A stretch of DNA of 64,000 nucleotides. Source: an uncultured Verrucomicrobiae bacterium. GTDB lineage: Bacteria; Verrucomicrobiota; Verrucomicrobiia; Opitutales; Opitutaceae. This document shows positions 21,971 through 60,813 of the stretch, in pieces. Each line of letters opens with the position of its first letter. The stretch's first letter is position 1. The position numbers and the translations under genes were made by a program. The notes beneath the pieces were generated by a model that was given only the letters and a program-made list of their open reading frames with translations, searched no databases and was not told where the DNA came from. The stretch lies in assembly GCA_963804395.1 (NCBI GenBank), contig CAWDQK010000002.1:1169-65168 (forward strand), written 5' to 3'.

Positions 21971-24900
21971 ATGCTTTTCAGACAGCATCCGCCGTTGCCC
22001 GGCCGCGTGGCATGCGGGCGATGTCTTTCGCGGGCAGTCGCCTTGGCCGTGGTTGCGGTGGCGCTGGCGTTTATCGTCGGCAGTCTGCCTGCGCAGGAAT
22101 CGACTCCAGGAGTGACGCGTTTTGTGGCGCCGGGTGTGCTGACAAGCTTCGAGCAAATCTGGCAACTTTCCGATGCCGAGAAACGACAGTGGCACCGCGT
22201 GCGACTGGAATGCATCGTCTACTACTACGATTCCTCGTGGAATGCCTTGTGGGGCCGGTGCGGCGGGACAGACGGCTATCTGTCGCCCGGCCACCAGGTT
22301 TTTCCAATCGAGCCAGGACAGCTCGTCCTTCTCGAAGGCCTGATGCAGCCTTCAATGGGCATGACCGTCGAAGAACCCAAGATGACAGTGCTGGCTGCGT
22401 CCGTTCCGCTGGAGCCTCTCGGCACACAAGGGCACGTGGGCGAAACGGATCGCTTCAACAAACGCCTGGTCACTGTCGAAGGCAACGTGGACCGGCAAGT
22501 CAGTCGCGACGCCAATCATCAGGATATCGACCTCATGGCGGAAGGCCACATGATCAGTGTCCGGTTGCTGTTGAAAGGTGGCGAGCCCGTGCCGCAATGG
22601 CAGGGCTCGACGGTGCGCGCCAAAGGAGTTTACTTCCTGCGCGAGGCCCAGGACGGCAGCGCCCCGAGGATCGAACTCTGGGTGCAGCGGACGGAAGATG
22701 TGGAGGTTCTCACATCGTTGAGCCGGGACGCCCGGTTTACCATGCCGCCGACGCCGGTCGGAAAGATCGCGGGGCTGCCGGCCGGAACACTCGTGCGGGT
22801 GGTGGGCACGGTGACCGCGCAGGAGCCCGGCAAATCGCTGGAAGTTCGGGATGATACCGGCGCGGTCGAGGTGCGGACGCTTCAGGGGCGGCCCGTGCAG
22901 GTGGGCGAGGCGGTCGAGGCGATCGGCTATCCGGCCCGGGAGGGTGGCGCGCTGGTTCTGCAGCAGGGTATTTTTCGAACCGCCGAGTCAGTCGTCGCCA
23001 GTTTCTCCCAGTTCTGGCAGTTGCCCGAAGTGGAACGGCGCATTCGACACCAGGTGCGCATGGAGGTCCTGGTATATTATTACGATCCGGGGTGGCAGAA
23101 TGCGTGGGGGCGTTCGGGGGGAATCGACGATTACTTCTCGCTCGGAAACGCTGCCCTCGGCCTCCATCCGGGCCAGCGTGTCCTGGTGCAAGGTTCGGTG
23201 CTTTCGCCCGAGGGGCTCACGATTGACGATCCCAAGGTGACGGTGCTGGCGGAGGACGAGCCGATCGAGGTGTTGGCGACGAAGGGCCGGATTGGCGACA
23301 CCGAACATTTGAACAAACACATGGTCCAGGTCGAGGGCTACCTCGACCGGCAGGGACCACCGGATGAACGGCACGTCAAGCTTGACCTCGTCGTGGAAGG
23401 CCGTCCCGTGACCGGCCGCCTGTTGCTCAAGGAAGGAACGCAGGCGCCCGAAATGGAGGGATCGTTGGTGCGCCTCAAGGGAGTCTATAGCGCAACACCG
23501 AATCCCACCACGACGGTTCCGACCATCGAGATCTGGGTGCAGGGGCTGGAAAACCTGGAGCTGCTGGGGTTGGTTGGACAAAGACGAGCGGTTCAACCGG
23601 GCCGTCACCCCGATGGAACGGCTCTCGACGGTCCGGCCGGAATCGTTGGTGCGGGTGGCCGGAATCGTGCGCGCGCAAGAGGCGGGCCAATCAGTGACGC
23701 TCCGCGACGACACGGGGCAGGTGGTCGTGCAGACGGCCCAGACCGCTCCGCTGCAGATCGGGGAACCGATCGAGGCCATCGGACTGGCGATGCCCAAGGG
23801 CGCCGACTGGATCCTGCGGGAAGGCCTCTACCGCCGCAGCGCGACCGGCCCGCTGGCGCCCGCAGTCGGAGCATCGACGGTGCGGCTGGCCGAGCAGTTG
23901 TTGGAGCTCTCACCGGAGGAAGCCGCGCGGAGGCACCCGGTGCAGCTGGCGGGTGTGATCACCTGGGCCAATGAGAACGCGAGCTTCTTCTATTTGCAGG
24001 ACGGGAGCGGCGGTGCCTGCGTGACACGGCCCGCTGACCTGACCGGGCGGCTGCTGGTGGGTGCGCGCGCAGCCGTGAGCGGAGTTTCCACGGAGGGCCG
24101 GTTCACGCCGGAGGTGCTGGCGATTAACGTGCTGCCGTCTGCGGAGGTGGCGCTGCCCGAGGCAAAGGTCGTAACGCTCGAACAGGCACTCACCGGCATC
24201 GAGGAAGGGCGATGGGTGAGCATGACCGGCTATGTGCGCGAGGTGGCTCCCGAGGGCCCGTGGATGCGGCTCGGTTTGACAACGGCGGCCGGGGAGTTTG
24301 TCGCGCTGGTGCCACCGGACAGCAGTCTGCTGAAGCTGCAGGGGTCGGTCGTGCGGGCGCGCGGTGTCTGCAGCGCGGTGGCCAACAGCCGGCACGAGCT
24401 GGTCGGCATTCGGTTGTGGGTGCCGGGGACCTTGTATCTCGAAGTCCAGGAGGGCGTGCCGGGCGACTTGTTTGCAGTGCCAAAGCGCACGATTGCGAGT
24501 CTGCGGCAATTCAGCTCACAACAGGCGTTGAATCATCGGGTGTGCGTCTCGGGAACGGTTGTGCACCAGACGGTCGGCCGCCTGGTGCACATTCAGGAGG
24601 GCAACGAGGGCCTGCTGGTGCTGAGCCGCGACACGGTCACGCCGCTGGCGGCCGGCGATCGCATCGAGGCGGTTGGATTTCCCGGCATTGAGAACAATCG
24701 GCTGGTTTTGCGGGAGGCAATCTATCGGCGGACCGCCACCGGACCGGAACCGGCGCCGCTGCTGCTCGGTCCGCGCATCCCGGTCAACGCCGAAATCGAT
24801 GGGCGCCTGGTGCAGATGGAGGGAACTGTCCTCGATGTCGGAGCGCAGGAGGACCACGTGAGGCTGATTCTGCGGACGGACACGCTGATCCTGGAGGCGA

Positions 24901-26377
24901 TGCTCGACGCGCGCCCGGCCGCGCTGCCGGCTGGTCTGGCGCCCGGCAGCCAGGCGGCATTGACCGGCGTCTACGAGATCCAGTCGGACGAATACCGGCG
25001 GCCGGAGACGGTCCGGTTGCAACTGCGAACGGGCGGCGATGTCCGCCTGATTAAGAATGCGCCCTGGCTGACGGGCTGGCGGGTTGTTGCGCTTATTGGC
25101 GTGCTGGCGGCGAGTCTGGTCCTTGGAAGTGCCTGGGTGTTTGTGTTGCGCCGCCGGGTGGAGAAACAGACCGACCAGATTCGGGAGCAATTGGAAAAGG
25201 AAAAGGCGGCGCGCCTCGAGACCGACCTCCTGCGCACCTCCAAGCTTGAGTCGCTCGGTGTGCTGGCCGGTGGCATCGCGCACGATTTCAACAACATGCT
25301 CACCGCGGTGATGGGCAATATCTCGCTCGCCAAGCTCGACCGACAGTGCGAGCCGGAGACCCTCCAACACCTGGAGGAGAGCGAGCGCGCGGTGCTTCGG
25401 GCCCGCGAGCTGACCCAGCAGTTGCTCACGTTTGCCCGGGGTGGAGCGCCGGTTCGAACCGTCACCGCGTTGCCGGAGATTGTGATGGAGGCGTCCCGGT
25501 TCGCGCTGCATGGATCCAAGGTCAGCTGCGAATTCAACATCGCGGACGACCTCTGGCTGGCGGATGTCAACAAGGGCCAGATTGCGCAGGTCGTCCACAA
25601 TATCATCATCAATGCCGACCATGCGATGCCCCAGGGCGGCGTTATCCGCATCACCTTGCGCAACGACCGGGTGGGCTCCGAGCGTCGCAGCGGGCTTGCG
25701 GCCGGCTGCTACCTCAAGCTGAGTGTTGCCGACACCGGAAAGGGCATCAGTCCTGAGAACCTTCCCGGATCTTTGAACCATACTTTACCACCAAGGGCAC
25801 GGGCAGCGGGCTCGGCCTGACGACCGTTTTCTCAATTGTTTCCCGGCATCAGGGGCATGTCGAAGTGGAATCCAGGGTCGGTAGCGGCACGACCTTCCAT
25901 ATCTGGCTACCGGCGCGCGAAGGGATGCTCGAATCTTCGCTTCCGGTGAAGTCTTTGGGAACCGCCGTACCCGGAGCGCGGCAGCGGAAAGGCCGGATTC
26001 TGTTCATGGACGACGAGGCGGCGATCCGGCAGATGGCTGTCGCCACGCTTCGACGCATGGGGCACGAGGTCACGGCGGTGGACGATGGTTCGGCGGCCGT
26101 CATCGAGTATTCCGCCGCGCACGAGGCCGGCCGGGGTTATGACGTGGTGATCCTCGACCTGACGGTGCCCGGCGGGATGGGCGGCGCCAAGGCGATGGAG
26201 AAGCTCCGGCAGATGGATCCGGAGGTTCGCGCGATTGTGTCGAGCGGGTACTCGAACGATCCGGTGCTGGCCAACTACCGCAGCCACGGGTTCCGTGCGA
26301 TCGTGCCCAAGCCATACGAGATCGGGGTGCTGACCGACGCGATCGATGCCCTGTTGCGCGAAGGCAGAGAACTGTAG
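21971..26377 (+). CDS. hybrid sensor histidine kinase/response regulator with large repetitive periplasmic region; two frame switches (near 23567 and 25765)
   Basis: Frames 2, 3 and 2 joined. Two ~190-aa tandem modules ([36 protein letters not shown] vs [36 protein letters not shown]), about six ~70-aa beta-rich units ending ..[29 protein letters not shown], His[13 protein letters not shown], HATPase [29 protein letters not shown], receiver [21 protein letters not shown]. Frame switches sit at gggg and ccc runs. Confidence 0.8.
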
Positions 26378-27563: not shown

Positions 27564-28489
27564 CTAATCCAGCGTGACGCCTTTGGACTCGGCGGAGCGG
27601 CGCAGGGCGGCAGCCATGTCGGAGGGCGTGGCGGCAACCTCGACGCCGCACTCCTGGAAGATGGCGATCTTCGCGGCGGCGGTGTCCTCCTTGCCCCCGA
27701 TGACGGCACCGGCGTGGCCCATGCGGCGTCCTTTGGGGGCCGTGGCCCCGGCGATGAACCCGGCGACGGGCTTCTTGCAGTTCTCCTTGATCCAGCGCGC
27801 GGCCTCGACCTCGGCGGTACCGCCGATTTCGCCGATCATGATGATGCCCTTGGTGTCCGGATCATCGTTGAACAACTTGATGACGTCCAGGTGCGAGGTG
27901 CCGTTGACCGGATCGCCGCCGATCCCGACGCATGGTGCTCTGGCCCAGGCCCATGCACGTGACCTGCCAGACGGCCTCATACGTGAGGGTGCCGGAGCGC
28001 GAAACGATGCCGACGTGGCCCTTCTTGTGAATGTAGCCCGGGGCGATGCCGATGCGGCAGCCGCCGGAGGAATCGGGACCGCTGCCGGGGGTAACAACTC
28101 CGGGGCAGTTGGGCCCGATGAGGCGCGTCTTCCGGCCGGCCATCGCCCGTTTCACGCGCACCATGTCGCGTACCGGAATGCCCTCGGTGATGGCGACGAC
28201 GAGATCGAGGCCGGCATCCGACGCATTCGAGGATCGCATCGGCGGCAAAGGGCGGGGGGACGAAGATCGCTGATACGGTGGCGCCGGTCGCGGCGACCGC
28301 GTCGGCGACGGAGTTGAAGATCGGAATCCTGTGTTGCTTGTACTCGAAGAACTGGCCGCCCTTGCCCGGGGTGACGCCGGCGACGACTTGCGTGCCGTAG
28401 TCGAGCGAGAGTTGGGCATGGCGGGCGCCGAACGCGCCGGTGATGCCCTGGATGAGGATCTTCGTTTCAGGAGTAATGAGAATGGACAT
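27564..28489 (-). CDS. sucD: succinyl-CoA ligase alpha subunit, split over three frames (frame switches near 28245 and 27931)
   Basis: N-terminal [34 protein letters not shown], middle [34 protein letters not shown]-terminal [29 protein letters not shown]. Each junction is restored by removing one nucleotide. Confidence 0.8.
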
Positions 28490-44924: not shown

Positions 44925-45776
44925 ATGCCCTTGCTATACCGCTATTTTCGCACGGGTTACCTGGAAACTCTTGATAATTGCGAGCTTAGGGTTGCGAGGA
45001 TTCGGGATCTCAATGATCCGTTCGAATGCAAAATTGCAATTGTCGGTGAGATGACGCCTGAAAATGCAAAGGCCCTTTTGACCGAGCGGAAAGACAGGGG
45101 GACTCTCCTTCATGGAATTCAGCAGAAATACCCTAATCTAAGGACGAGACGGGCGCTTGAACGCCACTTCACCCAACACAGCGAAGAATATGCACAAAAT
45201 CTCATTTTGGCTGAGCCAAGACTCAAAGAGAGAATCGAGAGAGTCAATTCGGACGTACTCGAAAAGGACATAAGGGTTGTGTGCTTCTCGGCTAACCAGA
45301 AGGACGATAGAAACACTGTCCTGTTGTGGTCTCACTACGCGAACGAGCACAAAGGCGTCCGGATCGGCTTTGATGTGCCTTCCGATGTTATGACACAATG
45401 CTTCCGCAAGATCGAATATTCAGACAACCGCGTTTTCCTCAATTTGACAGAGAACGCGGAATCGGAAGCAGGAAAAGAACAAATTGCGAGGTCACTGCGG
45501 ACCAAGAGCAGTTCGTGGGCATATGAAGAAGAAATTCGAATGCTTGTACATCCCGGCGAATGTTACGGTAAAACGGTCGTGGGTAAATCGATGGAATTTG
45601 TGAAGCTACCAAGATCTTGGGTTCGATTTGTGGATTTCGGGGTAAATGCGCCTGAATGTGACATCTCCAAGGTTCGCGAAATGGTGAAAGCACGCGGATA
45701 TGAGGCCGTGCTTAGGCAAGCGAAGACACATGCTACGAAGTTTTGCCTACTGTTTAATCCGATTTCTGGCGGGTAA
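44925..45776 (+). CDS. DUF2971-like protein in a low-GC islet
   Basis: 283 aa. N-terminal LYRYF..NDPFE and W(S)HYANEHKGVRIGF segments fit my recollection of the DUF2971 signature. Local GC ~45% against ~65% background, immediately 3' of tRNA-Glu. Confidence 0.6.
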   Translation: MPLLYRYFRTGYLETLDNCELRVARIRDLNDPFECKIAIVGEMTPENAKALLTERKDRGTLLHGIQQKYPNLRTRRALERHFTQHSEEYAQNLILAEPRLKERIERVNSDVLEKDIRVVCFSANQKDDRNTVLLWSHYANEHKGVRIGFDVPSDVMTQCFRKIEYSDNRVFLNLTENAESEAGKEQIARSLRTKSSSWAYEEEIRMLVHPGECYGKTVVGKSMEFVKLPRSWVRFVDFGVNAPECDISKVREMVKARGYEAVLRQAKTHATKFCLLFNPISGG

Positions 45777-46147
45777 CATCGGCGTTCTCTATTCGTGACA
45801 TCTGAAGGCACTTCAAACAAAAAGCCCGGCGCGCGGTGAAGCGGGCCAGGCTTGGAGGTCCGGAAACTCCGAATCTCAGCGCCGCGCCGGCCGTCTGCTC
45901 ACAGGCCGATTTAAGGGGGTCGGGCTTTGGGGTTTGGGGTTGGCAATTCAAGTGATGCGTCCAGTTGGAGCCGGCCCAAGGCCGAGCCTAAAGGGTCAGG
46001 ATCGACGGATCGCCCTGCTGATTCCCTTTTCGGCAGAACCGCGGGTTTCGCGGTGGAAATCTGGTTGCATCAGCGGAGTGAAGGCGGACGATCCCAGGCT
46101 TAGGTACGCCGGTGGAACCGGCCAATCGGAGTGCGAAAGGAGCAGTC

Positions 46148-48707
46148 ATGAACCGACGTGAGTTTGTGAAGGTGTCGGCAGCGGCGGCGGCCACGCTGCC
46201 GGCGGCGGGAATGGTGGCCAGGACGCGAGACCCCGGCGGGGAAGCCGCCAGCCGGGCGGCCGGCAGCGGGAATCCGGTTCGTTGCTTCAACGGGGTCTAT
46301 GAAGGGCCGAACTTGAGCCGGGTGGCGTTTCCCTTGGGCGGCATCGGCGCGGGCATGGTCTGCCTCGAGGGCGCCGGAGGCTTGTCCCATTGCTCGCTGT
46401 GGAACCACCCGGATGTGTTCAACGGCGCAGGGCTGTTTGCCGCCATCACGGTCAAAGGCACCGGAGGCGTTGCGCGCGTGCTGGAGGGACCGGTGCCGGG
46501 CTGGAAACTTTTCGGCCGGCCGGGGAACGCGGCGGGCGGGGCCGAGCCAGGTCTGGGCTTGCCCCGTTTCCGGGGCGCGTCATTCCGGGCCAGTTTCCCG
46601 TTTGGCGAAGTGACTCTGGCCGACGATGCGGTGCCGCTGGCCGTGAGGATTACCGGGTGGAGTCCGTTCGAACCGGGCGACGCCGACAATGCGAGCCTGC
46701 CGGTGGCGGCGCTGGAGTACGCCTTCACCAACCGCGGCACCGAGCCGGTCGACGCGGTGTTTTCGTTCCATGCGAAGCACTTTGTGGCGACGGAGAAGAG
46801 GCCAAATGAGATCAGGCCGGCGCCCGGTGGATTCATGCTGCACGGCGCCGGGACGCCGGACCGGCCGTGGGACGAGGCGGCCCTTCAGGTTTCCGTTGAA
46901 CGATCCCACGGTGAAGGTGAACCATGCCTGGTTCCGCGGCGGTTGGTGGGACTGGCTGGCGATGGTGTGGCGCGATATCGCCGCTGGCGCCGCTTACGAT
47001 CGTCCTCCGGTCAACGGGGGGCTGCCTGCGCCGGGCGCCTCGCTGTTTGTTCCGTTTCAACTCGGGCCGGGCGTGACCCGGGTGATCGCGGTCCGCCTGG
47101 CCTGGTATGCGGGGCAGACCAATTTGCGGGTGGGCAAGGACCTGCCCGGAACCGCCGGAGGGCCGAAAGAGACCTACCGGCCGTGGTATGCCGGACGGTT
47201 CAAGGACGTCGCGGAACTCGCGGCGTATTGGAATGAGCACTACGATGGGTTGAGGGCGGCGGCCGGGCGTTTTACCCGGTGCTTCCATGACTCGACGCTG
47301 CCGCCGGAGGTGATCGAGGCGGTGGCCGCCAATCTCGCGATCCTCAAGTCGCCGACCATCCTCCGTCAGACCGACGGGCGGCTCTGGGGTTGGGAAGGCT
47401 GCGCCGACCAGGAGGGCCAGGGGGCGCTGTGCAGCCACGTCTGGAATTACGCGCAGGCCATGCCGCATCTGTTTCCGGCACTTGAGCGCACGCTGCGGGA
47501 GACCGAGTTCGGGCCTTCCCAGGACGACCGGGGGGAGCAGACCTTTCGCAGCGGCCTGCCAATCCGGCCGATTGTCCACGAGGAGTACGACGCCGCCGAC
47601 GGCCAGCTGGGCGGCATCATGAAGGTCCACCGCGACTGGCGCATCAGCGGCGATCTCGGGTGGCTGCGAGCGAATCTGGCCAAGGTTCGCGTCAGCCTCG
47701 ACTACTGCATCGAGACCTGGGACCCGAGGCACTCGGGCTGCCCGGAGGAGCCCCAGCACAACACCTACGACATCGAGTTCTGGGGAGCCAACGGAATGTG
47801 CGCCAGCATCTATCTCGGAGCCTTGCAGGCCGCCGTCCTGATGGGCCGGGCCCTGGGCGAAAGAGTCGATGACTACGCCGCCCTCCTGGAAAAAGGAACC
47901 CGACGCGCGAACGAGGAGCTGTTCGATGGCGAGTATTTCTTCCAGCGAGTCGAGTGGGAAAACCTTCGCGCCAAGCTGCCGAAGGATCCCAAGAACTGGG
48001 TTGGCGAGAGCTTCTCATCCGAAGCAATGGCCCTCATCGAGAAGGAGGGACCGAATTATCAATACGGCACCGGCTGCCTCTCTGACGGGGTCATCGGATC
48101 CTGGTTCGCGCTGGTGTGCGGGGTCGGTCAGGTGCTGGACTCCGGCAAGGTGAAGAGTCATCTCAACGCCGTCCACCGGAACAACCTGAAGCACGACCTC
48201 TCGGCACACGCGAATCCCGACCGGCCCACCTACGCCTGCGGCTCCGAGGGCGGCCTGTTGCTTTGCACCTGGCCCAAGGGAGGCCGCGCCTCCCTGCCGT
48301 TCGTGTATTCCGACGAGGTGTGGACCGGCATTGAGTATCAAGTCGCCTCCCACCTGATGTTGATGGGATTTGCGAGCGAAGGGCTCGAGATCGTCCGGAC
48401 CTGTCGCAACCGGTATGACGGACGCGTCCGCAATCCCTTCGACGAATATGAATGGGGCCACTGGTATGCCCGGGCGATGGCCTCGTATGCGTTGTTGCAA
48501 GGGCTCAGCGGCGCCCGCTACGACGCGGTCGACAAGGTGCTGTATCTGCAGCCATCGATCGTTGGCGACTTCCGCTGTTTTCTTTCCACGGCGACCGGCT
48601 ATGGCACCGTGGGCGTCAAGGATGGGAAACCCTTCTGCGAGACTGTCCACGGCACAATCGAGGTCCGGGAGATCCGCTATTCGCCGGCGACGAAGGAGCG
48701 GGGATAG
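46148..48707 (+). CDS. glycoside hydrolase family 116-like beta-glucosidase (GBA2-type), Tat-secreted; one frame switch near 46885-46900
   Basis: Twin-arginine signal MNRREFVKVSAAAAATLPAAG. GH116 N-domain FPLGGIGAGMVCLEG, C-terminal catalytic region. Frames 2 and 3 join at DEAA/FRFPLNDPTVKVNH when one c is removed from ccc. Confidence 0.8.
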
Positions 48708-51591: not shown

Positions 51592-53836
51592 CTAATTTGC
51601 GACGGCCCCCAGGGTCTTGTCGGAAGCTTCCGCGGAGTATTTCTGGAAAAGGCGGCGGGAAACCGCGATCGTGTCGCCTGTCGGCGCCGCCGGATAGGTT
51701 TCGTGCTGTCGTGTCCAGGCCAGGTCATTTTCGCGGATTTTCGCCCGCGTTGCCTCCACGTCGAGTGCGTTGCCACTCGCGAGTGCAGACTGCAGGGCGC
51801 CGAGCCAGAGTTGCCAGCGTTGATAGTAGAATGTGCCGACCAAACCCGACCATTGCCGGTTGGCGTAGTCGGTGATTGCATCGTCCCGATTCCAGGTGGT
51901 CACGAGCTCACGTGCGTTTCGTTCACACAGGTCCTGCTCGTCTGTGGTCGTGCCGTAGGCGCGGGCGTCGGCCAGCCAGACTCCGAGGAGAAACTCCCGG
52001 CGGGTGGCGAGCAGTTCGTCGAGATCGTGAAACAGTCCGAGCAGGCGCCCGCTCAACTCGCGCACCGCGGTGGCGTCCTTGCGGGCATACGCCTGGACAA
52101 TTGCCTTGTGATAGCGTCCGGCGAGATCGGCCAGCACCTGCCGGCTCACATCGGCCAGATCGTAACGGTAGCCGTCGCTTTCGCCGCAGGCACCCGCGGC
52201 CTCGAGCATCAGCCGCCAGGCGTTGACCAGGCGCGTCGTGTCATAGCGCGGCTCCGTCGAGCCCCAGAGTCGGGCCTTGGGGTAGGGTTCGAGGGACGGG
52301 CGCGCGCAGACCACCGAATTCAAGGGATAGTCGACCACCGCGGAACCCCAGACGGTCTCGCACAAAATCTGCAAGGCGCGCTGCGGCGCCGGCGAATCGC
52401 TGCCATAGCGCCGGCGGGCGTAGTCGCGCAACCAGCCGGCGGCATCGGGCGCCTCGCTGCGCCAGGCGTTGCCAAAGAACATATCCCAGAGCAGCGGCTG
52501 CGTCTCGCTGCCTTCCATCAGCGCTCCAATGCCGCGCATTTGACCCTTGCCCGGTCCCGCTTCGGCGAGAGCCCGGACCGGTGCCTCACGCAGGGACTCC
52601 AGCCGTCCCGACAGGCCGACGTTGCCCCCGAAATTGTGAATCGTGCACCACAGCCACGGCGTATGGCCGAATTGCCCGCGCTCGCGCCAGTTCTCCTTGC
52701 TCTCGCAGAAGAGATCGAGCACCAGGAGCCTTGATTTGTCCAAGGCGTTCGACCATCGGCTGCCGCGGATTGTCCTGCCACGACTGCAGCACCCAGGTCA
52801 CATCGGGACGCGCCCGCACCATGGCCGCAAAGATCGCCTGGCCGCAGGCCGCAAGATCGATGCCTTGCGTGGTTCCGCCTTCGTGGAAGGGATCGGCGGC
52901 CAGGAATCTCGCGCCGCCGAGAAGACTGGTCTGCGCGTCATAGACCGCCGCGGCCACCTTCGCAAACAGCGGATCGAGCGGATCGAGCATGTCCGGCCGC
53001 TTGGAGCCGGCCCAGTCGCCCTGCGGATGGATCTTCGCATCCGGGAACCGCTTCTTGAAATCGGATGGCACGATGCCGTAGTAGCCCTGCAACACCGGGT
53101 CCATGCCCAGTTCGCGCATCCGGGTGACGATTTCGCGGCCGAGGGCGAGCCGCTTCCCCACGACCGCCGGCGGCACGGGTCCGCCGTAGTCCTCGATGTT
53201 CGACATGTATTGCCACGGCTGGTGCGATGGCATGCACAGCCAGCGCCTCACTTCGGAATCGGAATAGCCGAACTGCTGGAGTGCATTGATCCAGACCTGC
53301 TCCTGTCCCTCGATGATGAGGGCAAGATTGACACCCTTAAGTGCGAGGAAATCGAGTTCCCGCTCCCACCGCGTCCAATTCCACCAAGCCATCGTGTAGC
53401 CGTGGGTGCAGTAGTTGTAAGCGTACCGATACCGATGCGGGCTCACGACGCGAATCTTCCCCGGCACCGGCGGCAGCGATTCTGGCAACGCCAGCTGGTT
53501 GCCGCAGTTCCAGGAGATCTCGCAGCGGCCGAATTCCTCCAGGTAACGATTCAGGGCCGACGCGATGGAGACGCCGTTATTGCCGCGCAGAACGATCTTC
53601 CCGCCGCGACTCTCGACCTCGAAAACATCCTGTCCCTCGGCTGGCGGAATCACCTCCACGGCGAAATCGGAAGCGTGCGCGGGAACGAGGCGTTTGATCA
53701 GGCCGGTCGCGGCCCGGCTTGTGGCGGCTGAATCGGGTGCCGGCGGGCGCCCGGCCGGCTCGGCCAAGGCGATCGACTGGCAGGCGAGGAGAATCGTCCA
53801 AAGAAGCAGCCTAGGAATGAAGTTCGTTTTGTTCAT
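51592..53836 (-). CDS. alpha-N-acetylglucosaminidase (GH89, NAGLU-like), secreted; one frame switch near 52740
   Basis: Start at MNKTNFIPRLLLWTILLACQSIALA. GH89 TIM-barrel region ALKGVNLALIIEGQEQVWINALQQFGYSD..WQYMSNIEDYGGP, C-terminal helical domain in ORF 51592-52743. Upstream part of ORF 52586-54784 belongs to the MFS insertion. Confidence 0.8.
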
Positions 53837-54045: not shown

Positions 54046-55862
54046 TCAGATCTTGGCCGTCCCTTTTTCGAAATGCTCCTCGATCTCCTCGAGCGTCTTG
54101 CCCTTGGTCTCCGGCAGGAAGAAGGCGGCGGTGATGAAGTAGATCACAGTGCAGCCGGCGAATGCGAAGAACATGGTTGAGTAGCCGTACTTGCCGACGG
54201 TCGGCAGAAAGATGGCCGCGATGGTCGTGGAGACGGCCTGGTTGACGAGCAGGGCGATGCTCATGCCGTTGGAGCGGATGCGCGTCGGCATCAACTCGGA
54301 GAGCGCCAGCCAGACGCAGACGCCGGGGCCAACGGCGAAGAACGCCATGAAGCTGAACAGGAAAGCGGCGGTCAGCCACCGCTGGCGGGTGCCCGGCACG
54401 CGGCGTGATCAGCGCGTGTTCGATCCGCAGGGGCGCCAGGCGAGCCTGGTCCAGGCTGGCCAGCGGATTCGAAAAGAACGCTTCAACCTTTGTGGACGGC
54501 ACGCAACCGTCGCGTGTCACTTCGATTGGCGCGGCCAGCGGGTCGTCGGAACGCGCAGCCTTCGTGGCGGCGCGGTAGTCGCCGCAGGCATAGATGACGA
54601 CGAGAGTCGCCGGCTTCCCCGTGAGCCCCGCACCGGAGTCGTTGGTGGTGGCGAGCAGTCGATCCGCGGCCGCCTGATCGAACCTGAGCGCGAGCTTCTG
54701 GTCAGCTGCGACCATGGCTTGAACGGCGGCGCGAGCGTCCACGCGGAGCCGCTCCGTTCTGGCGGAAAAGCAGACCGACCACAATCAAGGAGACGATGAT
54801 GCCTGCGCTCCCGATCGAGAGCAGAAACTTGCGGCCCCGGCGGTCGACGAGCACGACGCCGCCGATCGTGCAGAGAAAATTGACGAGCGTCAGGATGACA
54901 TAGCCCCAGTGCGCCTGGACGTCGGACAGGCCGCTCTGGAGCAGAATCGTGGCGTTGTATCCGATAATCGAGTTGACCCCGGTCGCCTGGTTGCAGGCCA
55001 GAATGACGCAGGCGAGGATGAACGGCACCACGTATTTGCGCCGCAGCAGCGATTCCCGGATCGTTCCGCCGGCCGTGGAGGTCCCGGCTTTCCCGGGAGC
55101 GTTGGCCTCCTCCATTTCACGCAGCTCGATTTCGGCCTGGGCGGCGGTGCGGGAGCGAAGCAGGGCGGCGCGGGCTGCCTCCTTCCGGCCGCGGAGGAAC
55201 AGCCAGCGCGGCGACTCCTCCACCAGCAAGCTGCCGATCACAAACAGGAGGCCGGGTGGCAGCGACACCCAGAAGATGCTGCGCCAGGCCGCGTCCTTGA
55301 ACGCGCGAAGCTTCTCCGCATCGCCGAGCTTGGTTACGTCTCCGACCCGGATACTGAAATACATGCCGATCAGCGCCGCCGCCACGATTCCGAGCGTCAG
55401 CAGCCATTGGAAAACGCCGGTGCCTTTGCCCCGGTTCGCCGCGTCGAGGCATTCGGCGAGGTACAGCGGCACGACGACACCGATCAAGCCGGCGCTGATG
55501 CCCTGCAACAGGCGGCCGAGAACCAGCGGTTCATAGCCGTGCGCGAGGGCGATGATCGGAATGCTCGCAACGAAGAGAACGCCGCTCAGAACCATGAGGG
55601 GTTTCCGGCCCATCCAGTCGGCGAGCAGGCCGGCGAACAGCGTCGAGATCACGCTGCCCAGCAGCACGGCGGCGACGATGAACGATAGTTGCCCGGCAGT
55701 CAGGTCGGACGTGGCCTCCAGATAGGGGAGGGCGCCGGCGATGATTCCGACATCCACGCCGTACAGCAGACCGCCCAGGCCGGCGACCAGCAGAAGGAAG
55801 CGGTTATAGCCGGTCTTTGCGGCTTCAGGGGCCATTTCGTCTTTCGCAGGGGGATGGTTCAT
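54046..55862 (-). CDS. MFS sugar-porter family transporter, interrupted by a ~330-bp insertion between TM9 and TM10 (nt ~54405-54740)
   Basis: N-part ORF 54702-55862 (TM1-9, GRK, PESPRWL, R-K loop motifs). C-part from 54399 down (TM10-12, PGVCVWLALSELMPTRIRSN, PETKGKTLEEIE). The two parts are in different frames and separated by ~300 nt where ~15 codons are expected. Confidence 0.7.
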
Positions 55863-56172: not shown

Positions 56173-58296
56173 TCACGGGTTCGGCGGCTCGGGCGGAAAT
56201 GCGACGGCGTGGAGGTATTGCCGCCAGTCCTCCGGCGCGAGGGTGGAGCGCTTGCCCTGCTCCGCGGCGGCCGCGACGAGCAACCGGAGCGATGGGACGA
56301 TTGGGAATTCGACGGCGGCCGGTCCGGGTTCACGGGCGCAGCGAAGCCGGTCGTTGCATTGCCGCACCCAGTTGTTGTCGGGCGCCTGGCTCAAGAGGAG
56401 CACCTGGAGGGCATCCTGCCCCACGTCGGTGAGATCCGCCAGCGCCTGCGCGACGGCGGCGACTTCCCTGGCGGCCGGTTTCTCGGCGAGTTGCCGGCCG
56501 GCGGAATTCCAAATTCCGAGCTGCCGGGCGATCCCGGCGGCCAGATCGCGATCGAAGGGACCGGGCTGAAACAGGAACCGGTCCACGGAGGTGGCGAATT
56601 TCCGCGCCGGGACGCTGTCCGGCCGGGCACAGTCGGCAAGCCTGGTGAGCGGAGTGCCTTGAACGACCTCGGGCTGGAGTCCGCCGCGACGGTAGTCCTT
56701 CACGGGCTCGACAAGATCGACGAGCGCCCGGAGTTCCTGCACTTCGCCGGACGTGGCGTGTTCGCCAGCCAGGCGCCGCACCATGATCTCGTGGTGCTTC
56801 TCCTGGGTGAGGCCCGCTTCGTCCAGCCGGGCGTTGATGATTGCCAGCCGGCGATACATCTCATCCACGTCCTGGACCTCCCGGGGAGACCAAAGGCGCT
56901 CGGCAATCGCGGCGGTGCGCGGCCAGATGCGCGAATCGATCGTCTCGGGCGTCACCCATTCCGACCACATCGTCGCCTCGCCGCCCAGAATGCGCCGCTG
57001 TTCCTCGGTCGAGAGCGTTGTTGTCGCGGGCAGCGGGTCGTTGCGGTAGTGCTCCGCCGCCGGGTGGATGAGATCGATGTAGTAGCCGTTCGAGAGGATT
57101 CCGGCGTAGCCCAGGCGGGCCGCCGCATCAAGCGAATCGTGACCCCGCCAGGAATGGATGACGGCGTCCTGGGGCAGGCCGGGATGCAGGACCTCATCCC
57201 AGCCGATCAACCGCCGGCCGTGGTGTGCCAGGATCTCGGATACGCGGCGGTTGAACCAGGCATGGAGTCCGGCGTTGTCCTTCAGGCCGTGCTCGCGGAT
57301 GAACGCCTGGATCTGCGGGTTGGCGTTCCACTGCACCCCGTTGTTCTCATCGCCGCCGATATGGACGTAGGCATCCGGAAAGAGGCCCGACATTTCGCCG
57401 AGGAAATCGTCGAGCAGCCGATAGAGCGCCTCGTTTGTCGGATCCAGCACCGGGTTGAAAACTCCCCAGTGGCGTTCGATCGCGTAGGGACCGGGCAGGC
57501 TGGCCAGTTCCGGATGGGAGACAACCCAGCTGGTGGCGTGGCCGGGAATGTCAAACTCCGGCGCCACCCGGATGCCGCGGGCCTGCGCATAGGCGACGAT
57601 TTCCCGGATCTGATCCTGGGTGAAGTAATGCCCATCCGAGCCAGTGGCCGGCAACTCGGGGTGCGTCCGGCTCTCGATCCGGAATCCTTGGTCGTCGGTG
57701 AGGTGGAGGTGCAGAACGTTGAGCTTCACCAGCGCCATGCCGTCGAGGTTGCGTTCAATGACCTCGATTGGCTGCCAGTGCCGCGCCACGTCGATCATTA
57801 GGCCGCGCCAGGGGAAGCGGGGTTGGTCGCGAATGCTTGCGGCTGGCAGGAAGAAGCCACCCACGTCCCGGCGGAGCAATTGAAGCAGGGTTTCCAGCCC
57901 GCGCATGGCGCCGACCACGGTCGGGGCGCGCAACGTCGCCTGCTGGGCCGTGACATCGAGCGTGTACGATTCATCTTCTCCGATGGATGGGACGGAGAGG
58001 CCCGGCCCCTGGCAGTTGATCACCAAAGTGGCGGATGTCGCCGTGGGGATCGTGGCGCGGACCAGATTCAACCCCGTGCGGGCCTCCCAGCGGCTCAAGG
58101 CGCGGGAGATCGCGGCCTGCAGGCGCGCATCGTCGTGGCCGCACACGGCGACCGCGAATGCCCCGGTGATCGGCAGCCGGCCGGCGGCAGGGAGGACGTC
58201 CGCGGGGACCGGCATCAGGTCGAACTGCGTGGGTGCGGCGGGGTCCATTGATTGGACGAACGGGATCGTGCCACAGAACCCGATTACCAGCATCAT
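56173..58296 (-). CDS. beta-N-acetylhexosaminidase (GH20), secreted
   Basis: Start at the internal MMLVIGFCGTIPFVQS. GH20 catalytic region RGLMIDVARH, HLHLTDDQGFR, HIGGDE. The 218 upstream codons of ORF 56173-58950 cross repeats and are unsupported. Confidence 0.85.
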   Translation of the reverse strand: MMLVIGFCGTIPFVQSMDPAAPTQFDLMPVPADVLPAAGRLPITGAFAVAVCGHDDARLQAAISRALSRWEARTGLNLVRATIPTATSATLVINCQGPGLSVPSIGEDESYTLDVTAQQATLRAPTVVGAMRGLETLLQLLRRDVGGFFLPAASIRDQPRFPWRGLMIDVARHWQPIEVIERNLDGMALVKLNVLHLHLTDDQGFRIESRTHPELPATGSDGHYFTQDQIREIVAYAQARGIRVAPEFDIPGHATSWVVSHPELASLPGPYAIERHWGVFNPVLDPTNEALYRLLDDFLGEMSGLFPDAYVHIGGDENNGVQWNANPQIQAFIREHGLKDNAGLHAWFNRRVSEILAHHGRRLIGWDEVLHPGLPQDAVIHSWRGHDSLDAAARLGYAGILSNGYYIDLIHPAAEHYRNDPLPATTTLSTEEQRRILGGEATMWSEWVTPETIDSRIWPRTAAIAERLWSPREVQDVDEMYRRLAIINARLDEAGLTQEKHHEIMVRRLAGEHATSGEVQELRALVDLVEPVKDYRRGGLQPEVVQGTPLTRLADCARPDSVPARKFATSVDRFLFQPGPFDRDLAAGIARQLGIWNSAGRQLAEKPAAREVAAVAQALADLTDVGQDALQVLLLSQAPDNNWVRQCNDRLRCAREPGPAAVEFPIVPSLRLLVAAAAEQGKRSTLAPEDWRQYLHAVAFPPEPPNP

Positions 58297-58564
58297 CGCC
58301 AGCCCCAACCGGCGGGAAAAAATTTTGGTCGCATCTATGCTGACTGTAGGAGCGAGCTTCCGCCTTCGCAAATGCTTCGGCGGACAGGTGCTCGCGACCT
58401 GTCCTCCGCAGGCTCGGCGAAGGAGGATTTCGATCTGAGAATCGCCTGCCTCTCGACATGCTCGGGGCCCTGAGCTTGTCGAACGGGCAAGCAGGCTCCT
58501 ACAGCGACCAACTAACGATATCATCTCCGCGAGTGAAGGCGGCGTCAATTGGCGAACGCCGGAT

Positions 58565-60532
58565 TCAGAGTTGCGCATGGCTGAGGAATTCGTCGGGGCT
58601 GTAGCGCTTGAACGCCTCGATCGCCTCGTATTCGGCGAGTCCCAGGGCATTGTAGGCATCGGCGAGACGCCGGCTTCGATCTTCGGTCCGCTGCCAGAAT
58701 TCCCGGCGATCGTCGCCCAGGAAGAGGGCCTGATCCTTTTGCGTCTCGTGCCGGAAGATCGCGCGCCGACGGCGCAATACCTCCCCGGGGCTGAGCGGCA
58801 CGGCGAGGTCGATCTCGTCCAGTTCCCACTCGGCCCAGGCTCCGCGGTAGAACCAGAGTTCCGTCTCGCGAAACCAGGACTCAGCCGTGCTGCGGGCCAG
58901 CGCCTCGCGCAGCGCATGCACGCAGAGCCGGTGCGTGCCATGGGGATCATCGAGGTCGCCAGCGGCGAAGATCAAATGCGGCCGAATGTCGCCCAGCAAC
59001 TGGCGCATGATTTCGACGTCCTTCTCCGTCAGTTGCCGCCGTCGGACCGAGACGGTATAATAGAACGGCAGGTCAAGAAAATGCAGGCGATTCGCGGGCA
59101 CGCCGCAGACGTGGGCGGCCGCGACTGCCTCGTGACGACGGACCAGGGCCTTCCAGCGAGTCAGTTCCGCCGACGTTGGCAGGGCGCCCCCGGCTTCGTA
59201 GGCGGCACAAAGCGCCGCGACGCGGCCGGCCGATTCGGCATCGGACAGTCCCAGGTCGCGGACGAAGAGCAGCGCACTCCACAGCGACTCATCGGAGACC
59301 GCATTGGTCCCGGAGACCTGGTATGCGATGTGAACCTCGTGTCCGTGCTCGGCCAGGCGGCAGAGCGTGCCGCCCATGGAAATCGCATCGTCGTCCGGAT
59401 GCGGCGACAGCACCAGCACGCGTTTCGGAAACACGTTGGCCGCAGGCGAGCGCAGCGGGCGCACCGGCGCATCCCCTGGCTTGGTGCGCGCGGGATCGCG
59501 ACCTCCGGGCCAGCCGGTGATGGTGTGCTGCATCTGGTAGAAACCGGCCAAATTAGCCTCATAGGCCGAACCGTAGACTTGCAGCAGATCCTGGAGACCG
59601 GCCTCGTTATAGTCGTCGTCCGTCAGCTTGAGGATTGGCTTCCGGCGTTGCTGTGACAGCCAAAGAATGGCGCGGCGGGTCATGCGTTCGTCCCAGCTGA
59701 GACCCTGGTCCTCAAGCGCCCCAACCAGCCATGGGGTCCGATAACGCGTGAGCGCACTCGCGGCGGCTTGGTCGAGGACAAATTGGGCCTGATCGTGTTC
59801 CTGAAGAAACGAGGCGGTCACCTGCGGGGTGACCTCGCCTTCGATGGCAGCGCGCACGATGCCGGCCTTGTGCTGGCCCCAGGCCATGAGCACGATGCGC
59901 CGCGCTTCGAGGATGGTGCGGACGCCCATCGTGATCGCATCGCGGGGCGTATGCTCCACGCCCCCGAAATCCCCGGCGGCGTCGCGCCGGGTGAGCGGAT
60001 CCAGGGTTACGACCCGGGTGCGCGAGCGGCGGGCGCTGCCCGGCTCGTTGAAACCGATGTGCCCGGTGCGCCCGATGCCCAGGATTTGCAGGTCGATGCC
60101 GCCTGCCGCCCGGATCTTCTCCTCGTAGTCCCGGCAGCGAGCGTCAGCCGCGGCGTTGGAAACGGAACCGTCGGGCAGGTGAATCTGACCGGCCGGAATG
60201 TCGACGTGATCGAACAAATGGACCCGCATAAAGCGGTGATAACTCTGGGGATGATCGGCGGGCAGGCCGCGGTATTCGTCGAGGTTGAAGGTGACGACGT
60301 TGGCAAAACTCAAGCCTTCCTCGCGGTGCAAGCGGACCAGCTCCGCGTAGAAATTGACCGGCGTGGAGCCGGTCGCGAGCCCCAGCACCGCTCCGCGACC
60401 ATCGCGCTGGCGGGCGCGGATCAACTCCGCCGCTTCGAAGGCGACGGCGCGGGAAGCACCGAGACTGTTGGCGAAGACGGCCAGCGGGGCGTGTTCAAAG
60501 CGATTGGGCGCCAGGGTGTTTTGGGTGAGCAT
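58565..60532 (-). CDS. glucosamine-6-phosphate deaminase (NagB-like) fused to a PIG-L/LmbE-family N-acetylglucosaminyl deacetylase-like domain
   Basis: N-domain GLATGSTP, FNLDEY, GIGRTGHIGFNEPGS. C-domain SPHPDDDAISMGGT (PIG-L HPDDE-type motif) and HxxH region. Start at the internal Met MLTQNT. Confidence 0.75.
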   Translation of the reverse strand: MLTQNTLAPNRFEHAPLAVFANSLGASRAVAFEAAELIRARQRDGRGAVLGLATGSTPVNFYAELVRLHREEGLSFANVVTFNLDEYRGLPADHPQSYHRFMRVHLFDHVDIPAGQIHLPDGSVSNAAADARCRDYEEKIRAAGGIDLQILGIGRTGHIGFNEPGSARRSRTRVVTLDPLTRRDAAGDFGGVEHTPRDAITMGVRTILEARRIVLMAWGQHKAGIVRAAIEGEVTPQVTASFLQEHDQAQFVLDQAAASALTRYRTPWLVGALEDQGLSWDERMTRRAILWLSQQRRKPILKLTDDDYNEAGLQDLLQVYGSAYEANLAGFYQMQHTITGWPGGRDPARTKPGDAPVRPLRSPAANVFPKRVLVLSPHPDDDAISMGGTLCRLAEHGHEVHIAYQVSGTNAVSDESLWSALLFVRDLGLSDAESAGRVAALCAAYEAGGALPTSAELTRWKALVRRHEAVAAAHVCGVPANRLHFLDLPFYYTVSVRRRQLTEKDVEIMRQLLGDIRPHLIFAAGDLDDPHGTHRLCVHALREALARSTAESWFRETELWFYRGAWAEWELDEIDLAVPLSPGEVLRRRRAIFRHETQKDQALFLGDDRREFWQRTEDRSRRLADAYNALGLAEYEAIEAFKRYSPDEFLSHAQL

Positions 60533-60813
60533 GTCGGGAATCGTTGAATGGCCGCCGGGCGCGAGCCGGATGATAGACTTGCCGGGACGGGAGAAACGTA
60601 GCAGAAATACCGGTTGTTTGCGCCATTTCTTTCGCAACGAGAGCAGTGTCCTGATTTGCATTGTCATCGCGAGGCACACCTGGCGTGGCCGCCTGTCCTC
60701 CGTAGGCCTGGCGCAGGAGGGTGGCGATCCAGTGACATGGATTGCTTTGGCACAGTTTTCGATTGCGGCGGATCCGCGCTAGGCAGCGATGCCTGGTTCC
60801 CTCTCCATCACCG

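Follow-up and report, generated by a model that had tools for sequence, protein, structure and literature searches.

A conserved loop domain in a sugar porter of an uncultured Verrucomicrobiae bacterium, set out of frame by two single-base insertions that are probably consensus errors

We analyzed a stretch of 64,000 nt (hereafter the window) of contig CAWDQK010000002.1 from an uncultured Verrucomicrobiae bacterium (assembly GCA_963804395.1), in which a sugar transporter gene of the major facilitator superfamily (MFS) is encoded on the minus strand by three consecutive segments in three different frames. An earlier interpretation, made without database searches (the sequence-only reading), considered the middle segment to be an insertion splitting the gene between transmembrane helices (TM) 9 and 10. 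Our analysis has shown that the middle segment is native: it is a conserved domain of the TM9-TM10 loop, found in frame in homologues. The locus would represent one ordinary gene, coding for a 604-aa sugar-porter MFS transporter of an abundant Acidobacteriota/Verrucomicrobiota subfamily whose loop domain has about 120 aa. In the assembled sequence, two single-base insertions (A at 54758, G at 54401) each shift the frame by +1, making the domain look like an insert. With a probability of roughly 70%, both insertions are consensus errors of an indel-prone assembly, and the actual transporter gene is probably intact.

Layout and reading frames of the transporter gene

The coordinates of the gene, its parts and other features of the window are given in Table 1. 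Codon-start coordinates of the N-part, the middle segment and the C-part equal 2, 1 and 0 modulo 3, respectively. In the assembled sequence the N-part open reading frame (ORF) spans 54702-55862 of the minus strand (386 aa, stop codon at 54702-54704), the middle segment (about 357 nt, 119 codons) is open in its own frame, and the C-part ORF spans 54046-54399 (117 aa). The N-part has a G+C content of third codon positions (GC3), calculated per phase, of about 0.8-0.9; the values for the middle segment and the C-part are 0.78-0.85 and at least 0.9 (0.92), respectively. As GC3 tracks the three phases in turn, all three segments look coding on the minus strand. No single uninterrupted ORF covers the gene as assembled; such an ORF appears when bases 54758 and 54401 are removed. 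The sequence-only reading was right about the protein-like segment in a third frame, and the peptide quoted for it is the exact translation of that frame.

The core of the transporter is, by profile and structural-template matches, a bona fide sugar porter (PF00083, TIGR00879, GlcP/XylE-like). The Pfam profile Sugar_tr (PF00083) matches the N-part ORF with positions 3-335 (E = 2.4e-64) and the C-part ORF with positions 351-452 (E = 3.9e-24), and the orthologous protein P0024 scores 248.1 against NCBIfam TIGR00879, with the cut-off being 237.8. Signature-like sugar-porter motifs are observed after TM2 (GRKP), after TM6 (ESPRW) and at the C-terminus (PETKGKTLEEIE). The two halves had been described as aligning to consecutive parts of sugar porters with approximately 10-15 residues missing; 15 positions of the Sugar_tr profile indeed remain unmatched, but nothing is missing from the protein, the short loop being replaced by the domain.

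Table 1. Features of the transporter locus and of other genes of the window discussed in the text. Coordinates are positions in the window; bases in square brackets are extra.
Feature	Position	Strand	Remarks
Whole MFS sugar-porter gene	54046..55862	-	604 codons and stop codon once 54758 and 54401 are removed
N-part, residues 1-368, TM1-TM9 with long cytoplasmic TM6-7 loop	54759..55862	-	Pfam Sugar_tr 3-335
First +1 frameshift, extra A (T on the plus strand), CAG[A]ACGG	54758	-	Single-base gap against L008 and L088
TM9-TM10 loop domain (native), TERLRVD...ALITP, 119 aa	54401..54757	-	Predicted to face the periplasm
Second +1 frameshift, extra G (C on the plus strand), ACGCC[G]CGTG	54401	-	Single-base gap against L008 and L088
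C-part, residues 488-604, TM10-TM12, PETKGKTLEEIE tail and stop codon	54046..54400	-	Pfam Sugar_tr 351-452
CACGCGG, copy 1	54397..54403	+	Chance; product of the extra base itself
CACGCGG, copy 2	54740..54746	+	Chance; within the domain coding sequence, codons L-R-V-D, 12-18 nt inside the domain
Alpha-N-acetylglucosaminidase (NAGLU/GH89), downstream neighbour	51592..53836	-	Pfam; broken at 52749
NAGLU (GH89), 1-nt insertion TCG[A]ACG	52749	-	Single-base gap against L008 and L088 (intact, 747 aa)
GH20 beta-hexosaminidase, upstream neighbour	56173..58400	-	Pfam; 5' end approximate
NagB/PIG-L fusion	58568-60778	-	
GH116 (46112-48707), +1 frameshift at GTTG[A]ACGATC	~46868-46876	+	Base approximate
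Hybrid histidine kinase (23412-26374), apparent 1-base deletion in a C-run	~25763-25768	+	HATPase_c split 5-55 / 56-110
sucD (succinyl-CoA ligase alpha), three frames	27564-28489	-	+1 insertions at ~28222-28226 and ~27934-27938

Comparison with orthologues

The nearest relatives of the gene are found in an Opitutia metagenome-assembled genome (MAG), locus L008, and in the contigs carrying P0024 (loci L088-L091). In the alignment with L008, 1491 of 1836 nt are identical (81.2%), and there are exactly two internal gaps; the alignment with L088 has internal gaps at 54758 and 54401 only. After removal of the two bases, the coding sequence is 1815 nt long and encodes 604 aa; the alignment of this protein with the equally long L008 orthologue is gapless, with 82.6% amino acid identity. 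The corrected junctions read ...LLFRQ-TERLRVD... and ...ALITP-VPGTRQRW..., as in the orthologue. The N-side junction (site 54758) is in frame also in loci L007 and L003, and at the C-side junction (site 54401) ALITPVP... is in frame in all homologues. The three segments are in three different frames because both events are +1 insertions.

The ratio of nonsynonymous to synonymous substitution rates (dN/dS) against L008 is 0.142 in the N-part, 0.349 in the domain and 0.145 in the C-part. Equality of this ratio upstream and downstream of the frameshifts means that the latter are either extremely recent or not real. Moreover, there is no step in the G+C content across the middle segment. The interpretation of this segment as an insertion does not hold, since orthologues carry the same segment in frame, and the evidence matches the option that the sequence-only reading had considered less likely, that is, an extramembrane domain masked by two indels (here, two 1-nt insertions around a native domain).

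One of the loci, L007:1-594 (a 594-nt MEGAHIT contig), runs in frame from TM9 into the domain and, after ...AFFSNPFG, continues with unrelated sequence (SIILIRLLRLHG...), which suggests that this contig is chimeric or rearranged.

Distribution of the loop domain

When the middle segment alone was used as a protein query, 20 relatives were retrieved, all continuing in frame into the C-terminal part of the transporter (...APLRIENALITPVPxxxNGWLTA..FMAFFAVGPGVCVWLALSELMPTRIRSNGMS...). When genomes, one per species, were scanned with the domain alignment, at least 558 of them were found to encode the domain, mostly MAGs of Acidobacteriaceae/Terriglobales and Opitutaceae/Verrucomicrobiota. ORF continuity was examined in 79 loci, those carrying the FFSNP motif. 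In 77 of them, the domain lies within a stop-to-stop ORF of 591-782 aa, which holds both the N-part and the C-part in the same frame as the domain. The two others (L060:3416-4705 and L075:3596-4723, with ORFs of 430 and 376 aa, respectively) are broken in the N-terminal half, off the domain boundaries.

The search with the corrected 604-aa protein produced at least 8000 candidates, the best 120 of them being 582-635 aa long, 76-83% identical to the query and covering 96-100% of it; intact homologues of 595-606 aa number in the thousands. In databases the homologues are named 'MFS transporter' or, in many JGI/KEGG entries, 'SP family myo-inositol transporter-like MFS transporter 13'.

The phmmer search with the domain against 1.84 billion cluster representatives yielded 98 matches. 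Those checked are pieces or members of the transporter family, in which Sugar_tr flanks the domain at one or both ends, and no stand-alone donor gene is found among them; the exception is a group of weak matches to Ig-like repeats. The latter are multi-repeat matches of domain residues 34-79 to InlK_D3 and CHB_HEX_C_1 repeats in large surface proteins (P0167, P0184, P0220, P0230). They may reflect only the TLVVIYSYGDF hairpin, and structure searches gave no support for a relationship between the domain and Ig-like repeats.

Five short metagenomic contigs from different samples (L001:1-20, L002:1-20, L004:1-10, L005:1-10, L006:1-10) start at most 18 nt from the Met codon of 'MVxxDQ' in the loop domain. 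These shared starts probably result from the retrieval bias of the word-index search (181 candidates) combined with truncation at contig ends; a recurrent assembly breakpoint is a possible cause as well.

Predicted fold and position of the domain

The AlphaFold2 prediction based on the alignment of 57 sequences gives a compact alpha/beta domain, with the mean predicted local distance difference test score (pLDDT) of 92.5 and the predicted template modelling score (pTM) of 0.83. The predicted helices are in positions 9-15, 28-36, 39-42, 82-85, 90-96 and 102-107, and the strands, in positions 22-24, 51-58, 61-64, 78-80 and 110-118. Invariant positions include Y56, G59, S70, R82, P87 and the FFxNP motif; only one cysteine is nearly invariant. 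The domain matches no Pfam family at E<=1 (PSI included) and has no relatives in NCBIfam or the Protein Data Bank (PDB). As for an intein, there are no matches to Hint or intein Pfam families, and what separates the two transmembrane helices is a conserved loop with a predicted alpha/beta fold and no PDB relatives.

Residues 4-325 and 333-440 of GlcP (4lds) align to query residues 20-366 and 493-600, respectively (E = 1.3e-47), and the TM9-10 loop of sugar porters is exofacial (PMC2890515). From this topology, combined with the GlcP alignment, the domain is predicted to face the periplasm. It would lie over the periplasmic mouth of the transporter, where it could participate in gating, in substrate pre-binding or in docking of periplasmic partners. 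We give about even odds to the loop being a periplasmic domain family not described before, which occurs in at least 558 species and may help sugar porters to capture glycosidase products. Literature searches retrieved no description of such a periplasmic domain in sugar porters of bacteria. In soil Acidobacteriota and Verrucomicrobiota, a very abundant subfamily of sugar porters appears to carry a confidently folded domain of about 120 aa on its predicted periplasmic side, a candidate for a new family, though unsurprising in kind.

Other frameshifts in the window

The window contains at least seven frameshifts in five genes (two in the MFS gene and five in four other, well-conserved genes), that is, approximately one per 9 kb. 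In the NAGLU gene, the Pfam NAGLU TIM-barrel profile is matched in two frames (positions 1-224 and 241-335); similarly, positions 1-152 and 219-310 of Glyco_hydr_116N are in different frames of the GH116 gene. In sucD, the CoA_binding domain, the middle part (56% identical to residues 74-174 of E. coli SucD) and the Ligase_CoA domain are each in their own frame, and the two insertions share the 9-mer ATGCGTCGG. The sole -1 event of the seven is the one in the histidine kinase gene, where the run CCCC appears to be shortened to CCC (CTTCCCGGATC where CCC-CGG is expected).

Each of the six other events is a +1 insertion; three of them, including both NAGLU 52749 and MFS 54758, have the context G[A]ACG, and two have the context [A]TGCGTCGG. 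None of the five broken genes has in-frame stop codons or larger deletions. The recurrent contexts and the +1 bias indicate a systematic process. Taken together, the density of events in recurrent contexts, the two hits in a gene of the tricarboxylic acid cycle, and the lack of stop codons and larger lesions fit a systematic consensus error better than genome decay.

Two further observations concern frames in related sequences. At 60559 the NagB/PIG-L gene differs by 1 nt in length from L088, and the start of the L088 protein, 'MAQTTGISA', is in another frame in the window. The true start (MLTQNTLAPNRFEH) is likely downstream of 60559, and this difference was not counted as a frameshift. A related 170-kb long-read ENA contig (L003:400-8600) has split kdpA and kdpD genes and the same MFS gene in three frames, with breaks at positions that differ from those of the window. 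It illustrates independently that assemblies of this family may be prone to indels.

Origin of the two insertions

Several points weigh against the two MFS insertions being consensus errors. Errors and real mutations are told apart here by inference, not directly from reads. Neither insertion is in a long homopolymer. Both sit in stretches identical to the orthologues and close to the true loop boundaries (within about 1 and 5 codons, respectively), an unexplained coincidence with a probability of about 5e-4 for two random sites by our estimate. No assembly of the same species was found (the exact look-up of the N-part ORF was empty), and the nearest relatives are 81% identical at the nucleotide level.

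The strongest competitor, which we still consider unlikely, is that the mutations are real and the gene has recently become a pseudogene, like several others in a genome losing its glycan-utilisation genes. The sequence as given is indeed frameshifted, as are NAGLU in the same block and GH116 about 7 kb away, a second lesion would come free once the gene was dead, and the absence of long homopolymers at the MFS sites agrees with real mutations. However, with dN/dS of 0.145 downstream of the frameshifts against 0.142 upstream and GC3 of 0.92, there would have been no time for decay, and no in-frame stops or larger deletions have accumulated in any of the five genes. Moreover, the damage extends beyond one pathway, as the housekeeping gene sucD is hit twice and the histidine kinase gene once, and +1 insertions in recurrent contexts, which make up six of the seven events, would more typically come from a technical bias.

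A chimeric assembly, in which the middle segment of another strain or species was joined in with off-by-one junctions, is quite improbable. It would account for both indels being at the edges of a more variable domain, in stretches perfectly conserved between species, where ambiguities of the assembly graph or of polishing are expected. Still, the chimeric join proposed in the sequence-only reading is contradicted by the colinearity of the whole gene with its orthologues at the uniform 81% identity. Gene order and content are exactly as in the orthologues, the identity to L008 makes no jump beyond the faster evolution of the domain seen in all family members, and the other five frameshifts of the window are away from any comparable boundaries.

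Even less probable is that the +1 shifts are real and the full-length transporter is made nevertheless, through programmed +1 ribosomal frameshifting or through correction at the RNA level at specific motifs. The six +1 sites with recurrent contexts (G[A]ACG, [A]TGCGTCGG), some of them in sucD, which is expected to be functional, and the perfect preservation of the coding sequence downstream of every shift are what such a mechanism would predict. At the same time, no site is conserved in orthologues, with L008, L088 and 77 of the 79 homologous loci being in frame; the MFS sites have neither a stop codon or rare codon to stall at, nor an upstream Shine-Dalgarno-like stimulator, nor a slippery run; and the seventh event, in the histidine kinase gene, is a deletion in a C-run. 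We know of no recoding or correction system of this kind in free-living bacteria. If true, it would mean context-specific recoding or editing in an Opitutia-like bacterium, with six +1 sites in 64 kb.

The capture of a foreign gene fragment or the insertion of a small mobile element, with CCGCGTG as a target-site duplication, has a negligible probability. Its appeal lies in the third frame of the segment and in the 7-mer near both of its ends, yet the segment occupies the same site, in frame, in orthologues and distant homologues (77 of 79 genomes from two phyla, and thousands of proteins). Its 81% identity to orthologues is the same as that of the flanks, the G+C content shows no step, and the phmmer matches, the weak repeat-protein ones aside, offer no stand-alone source gene. 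A mobile element is further contradicted by the lack of an inverted repeat pairing the junctions and of a match to any element family, and by the presence of the segment in all homologues examined.

As for the 7-mer (CACGCGG on the plus strand), both copies noted at the junctions do exist, but the upstream one lies inside the domain coding sequence, and the other is made by the extra base (Table 1). In orthologues the corresponding sites read CC-CGTG (copy 1) and TTGCGCGTCGAT (copy 2). The window contains 16 copies of the 7-mer, compared to about 27 expected from shuffles; it is rarer than chance, and the pair is a chance occurrence. Target-site duplication with excision was also considered and rejected: the two copies are 343 nt apart, and deletion of that stretch leaves the frame broken.

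A genuinely split gene, producing TM1-9, the soluble domain and TM10-12 as separate polypeptides, is hardly credible: the last part of the N-part ORF overlaps with an ATG (54715-54713) and several database proteins start at that Met, but these proteins are at contig ends (gene starts at contig positions 3-11) and hence truncated, the periplasmic domain alone would need a signal peptide and has none, the frame of the domain has no stop codon after it and runs out of frame to 52586, and full-length single ORFs are the rule elsewhere. A conserved split or a conserved frameshift had been suggested by the first insert-only search, which gave proteins of at most 226 aa comprised of the domain and the C-part; it is refuted by the thousands of intact ORFs.

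Consensus errors in an otherwise intact gene remain the preferred explanation, and the case carries a caution: a protein-like segment in a third frame may be a native domain behind two indels, and every broken gene in this window is suspect.

Gene neighbourhood and possible function

The order of genes NagB/PIG-L - GH20 - MFS - NAGLU is common to the window and loci L008 and L088-L091, and GH20 is located upstream of the transporter gene in eight Verrucomicrobiota loci. The most common downstream neighbour is a gene encoding a SIS-domain protein (15 of 76 loci). The glycosidase and NagB neighbours suggest proton-coupled amino-sugar uptake. With modest confidence, since the neighbourhood varies across the family, gene context suggests that the substrate is N-acetylglucosamine, glucosamine or a related amino sugar freed by GH20/GH89.

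Two ORFs on the plus strand of the window are unrelated to the transporter: the one at 33716-34402 matches Phage_CP76 (CII-like regulator), and the one at 44925-45776 encodes 283 aa.

Comparison with known systems

In draft and long-read assemblies, genes split by indel errors show the same features as those of the window: single-base indels in ORFs that are otherwise perfectly conserved, several per tens of kilobases, with housekeeping genes hit too. The events in the window are mostly insertions of one to two bases in recurrent non-homopolymer contexts, while the classic errors are deletions in long homopolymers.

The 12-TM core of the transporter is shared with GlcP of S. epidermidis (4lds) and XylE of E. 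coli (4gby; TC 2.A.1.1). The TM9-TM10 loop of GlcP and XylE is about 7 residues long, whereas in the family described here this place is occupied by a folded domain of 119-126 aa.

Helices 9 and 10 of HMIT (SLC2A13), GLUT10 and GLUT12 are separated by an extended exofacial insertion (PMC2890515). An extended TM9-TM10 loop, likewise predicted to be exofacial, distinguishes the family of the window, as it does HMIT, the plant inositol transporters (INT), GLUT10 and GLUT12. By the title of a 2010 study by Dotzauer et al. (Traffic 11:767, as cited in PMC11963481), the loops of eukaryotic inositol symporters (HMIT, plant INT) are reportedly PSI domains. The eukaryotic loops are cysteine-rich, while the bacterial domain has neither a PSI nor a cysteine-rich signature and shows no detectable homology with them. 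The gene context of the bacterial transporter points to amino sugars, unlike HMIT and INT, whose substrate is inositol. The bacterial domain resembles the HMIT, INT and GLUT loops by position only and stands outside that loop family.

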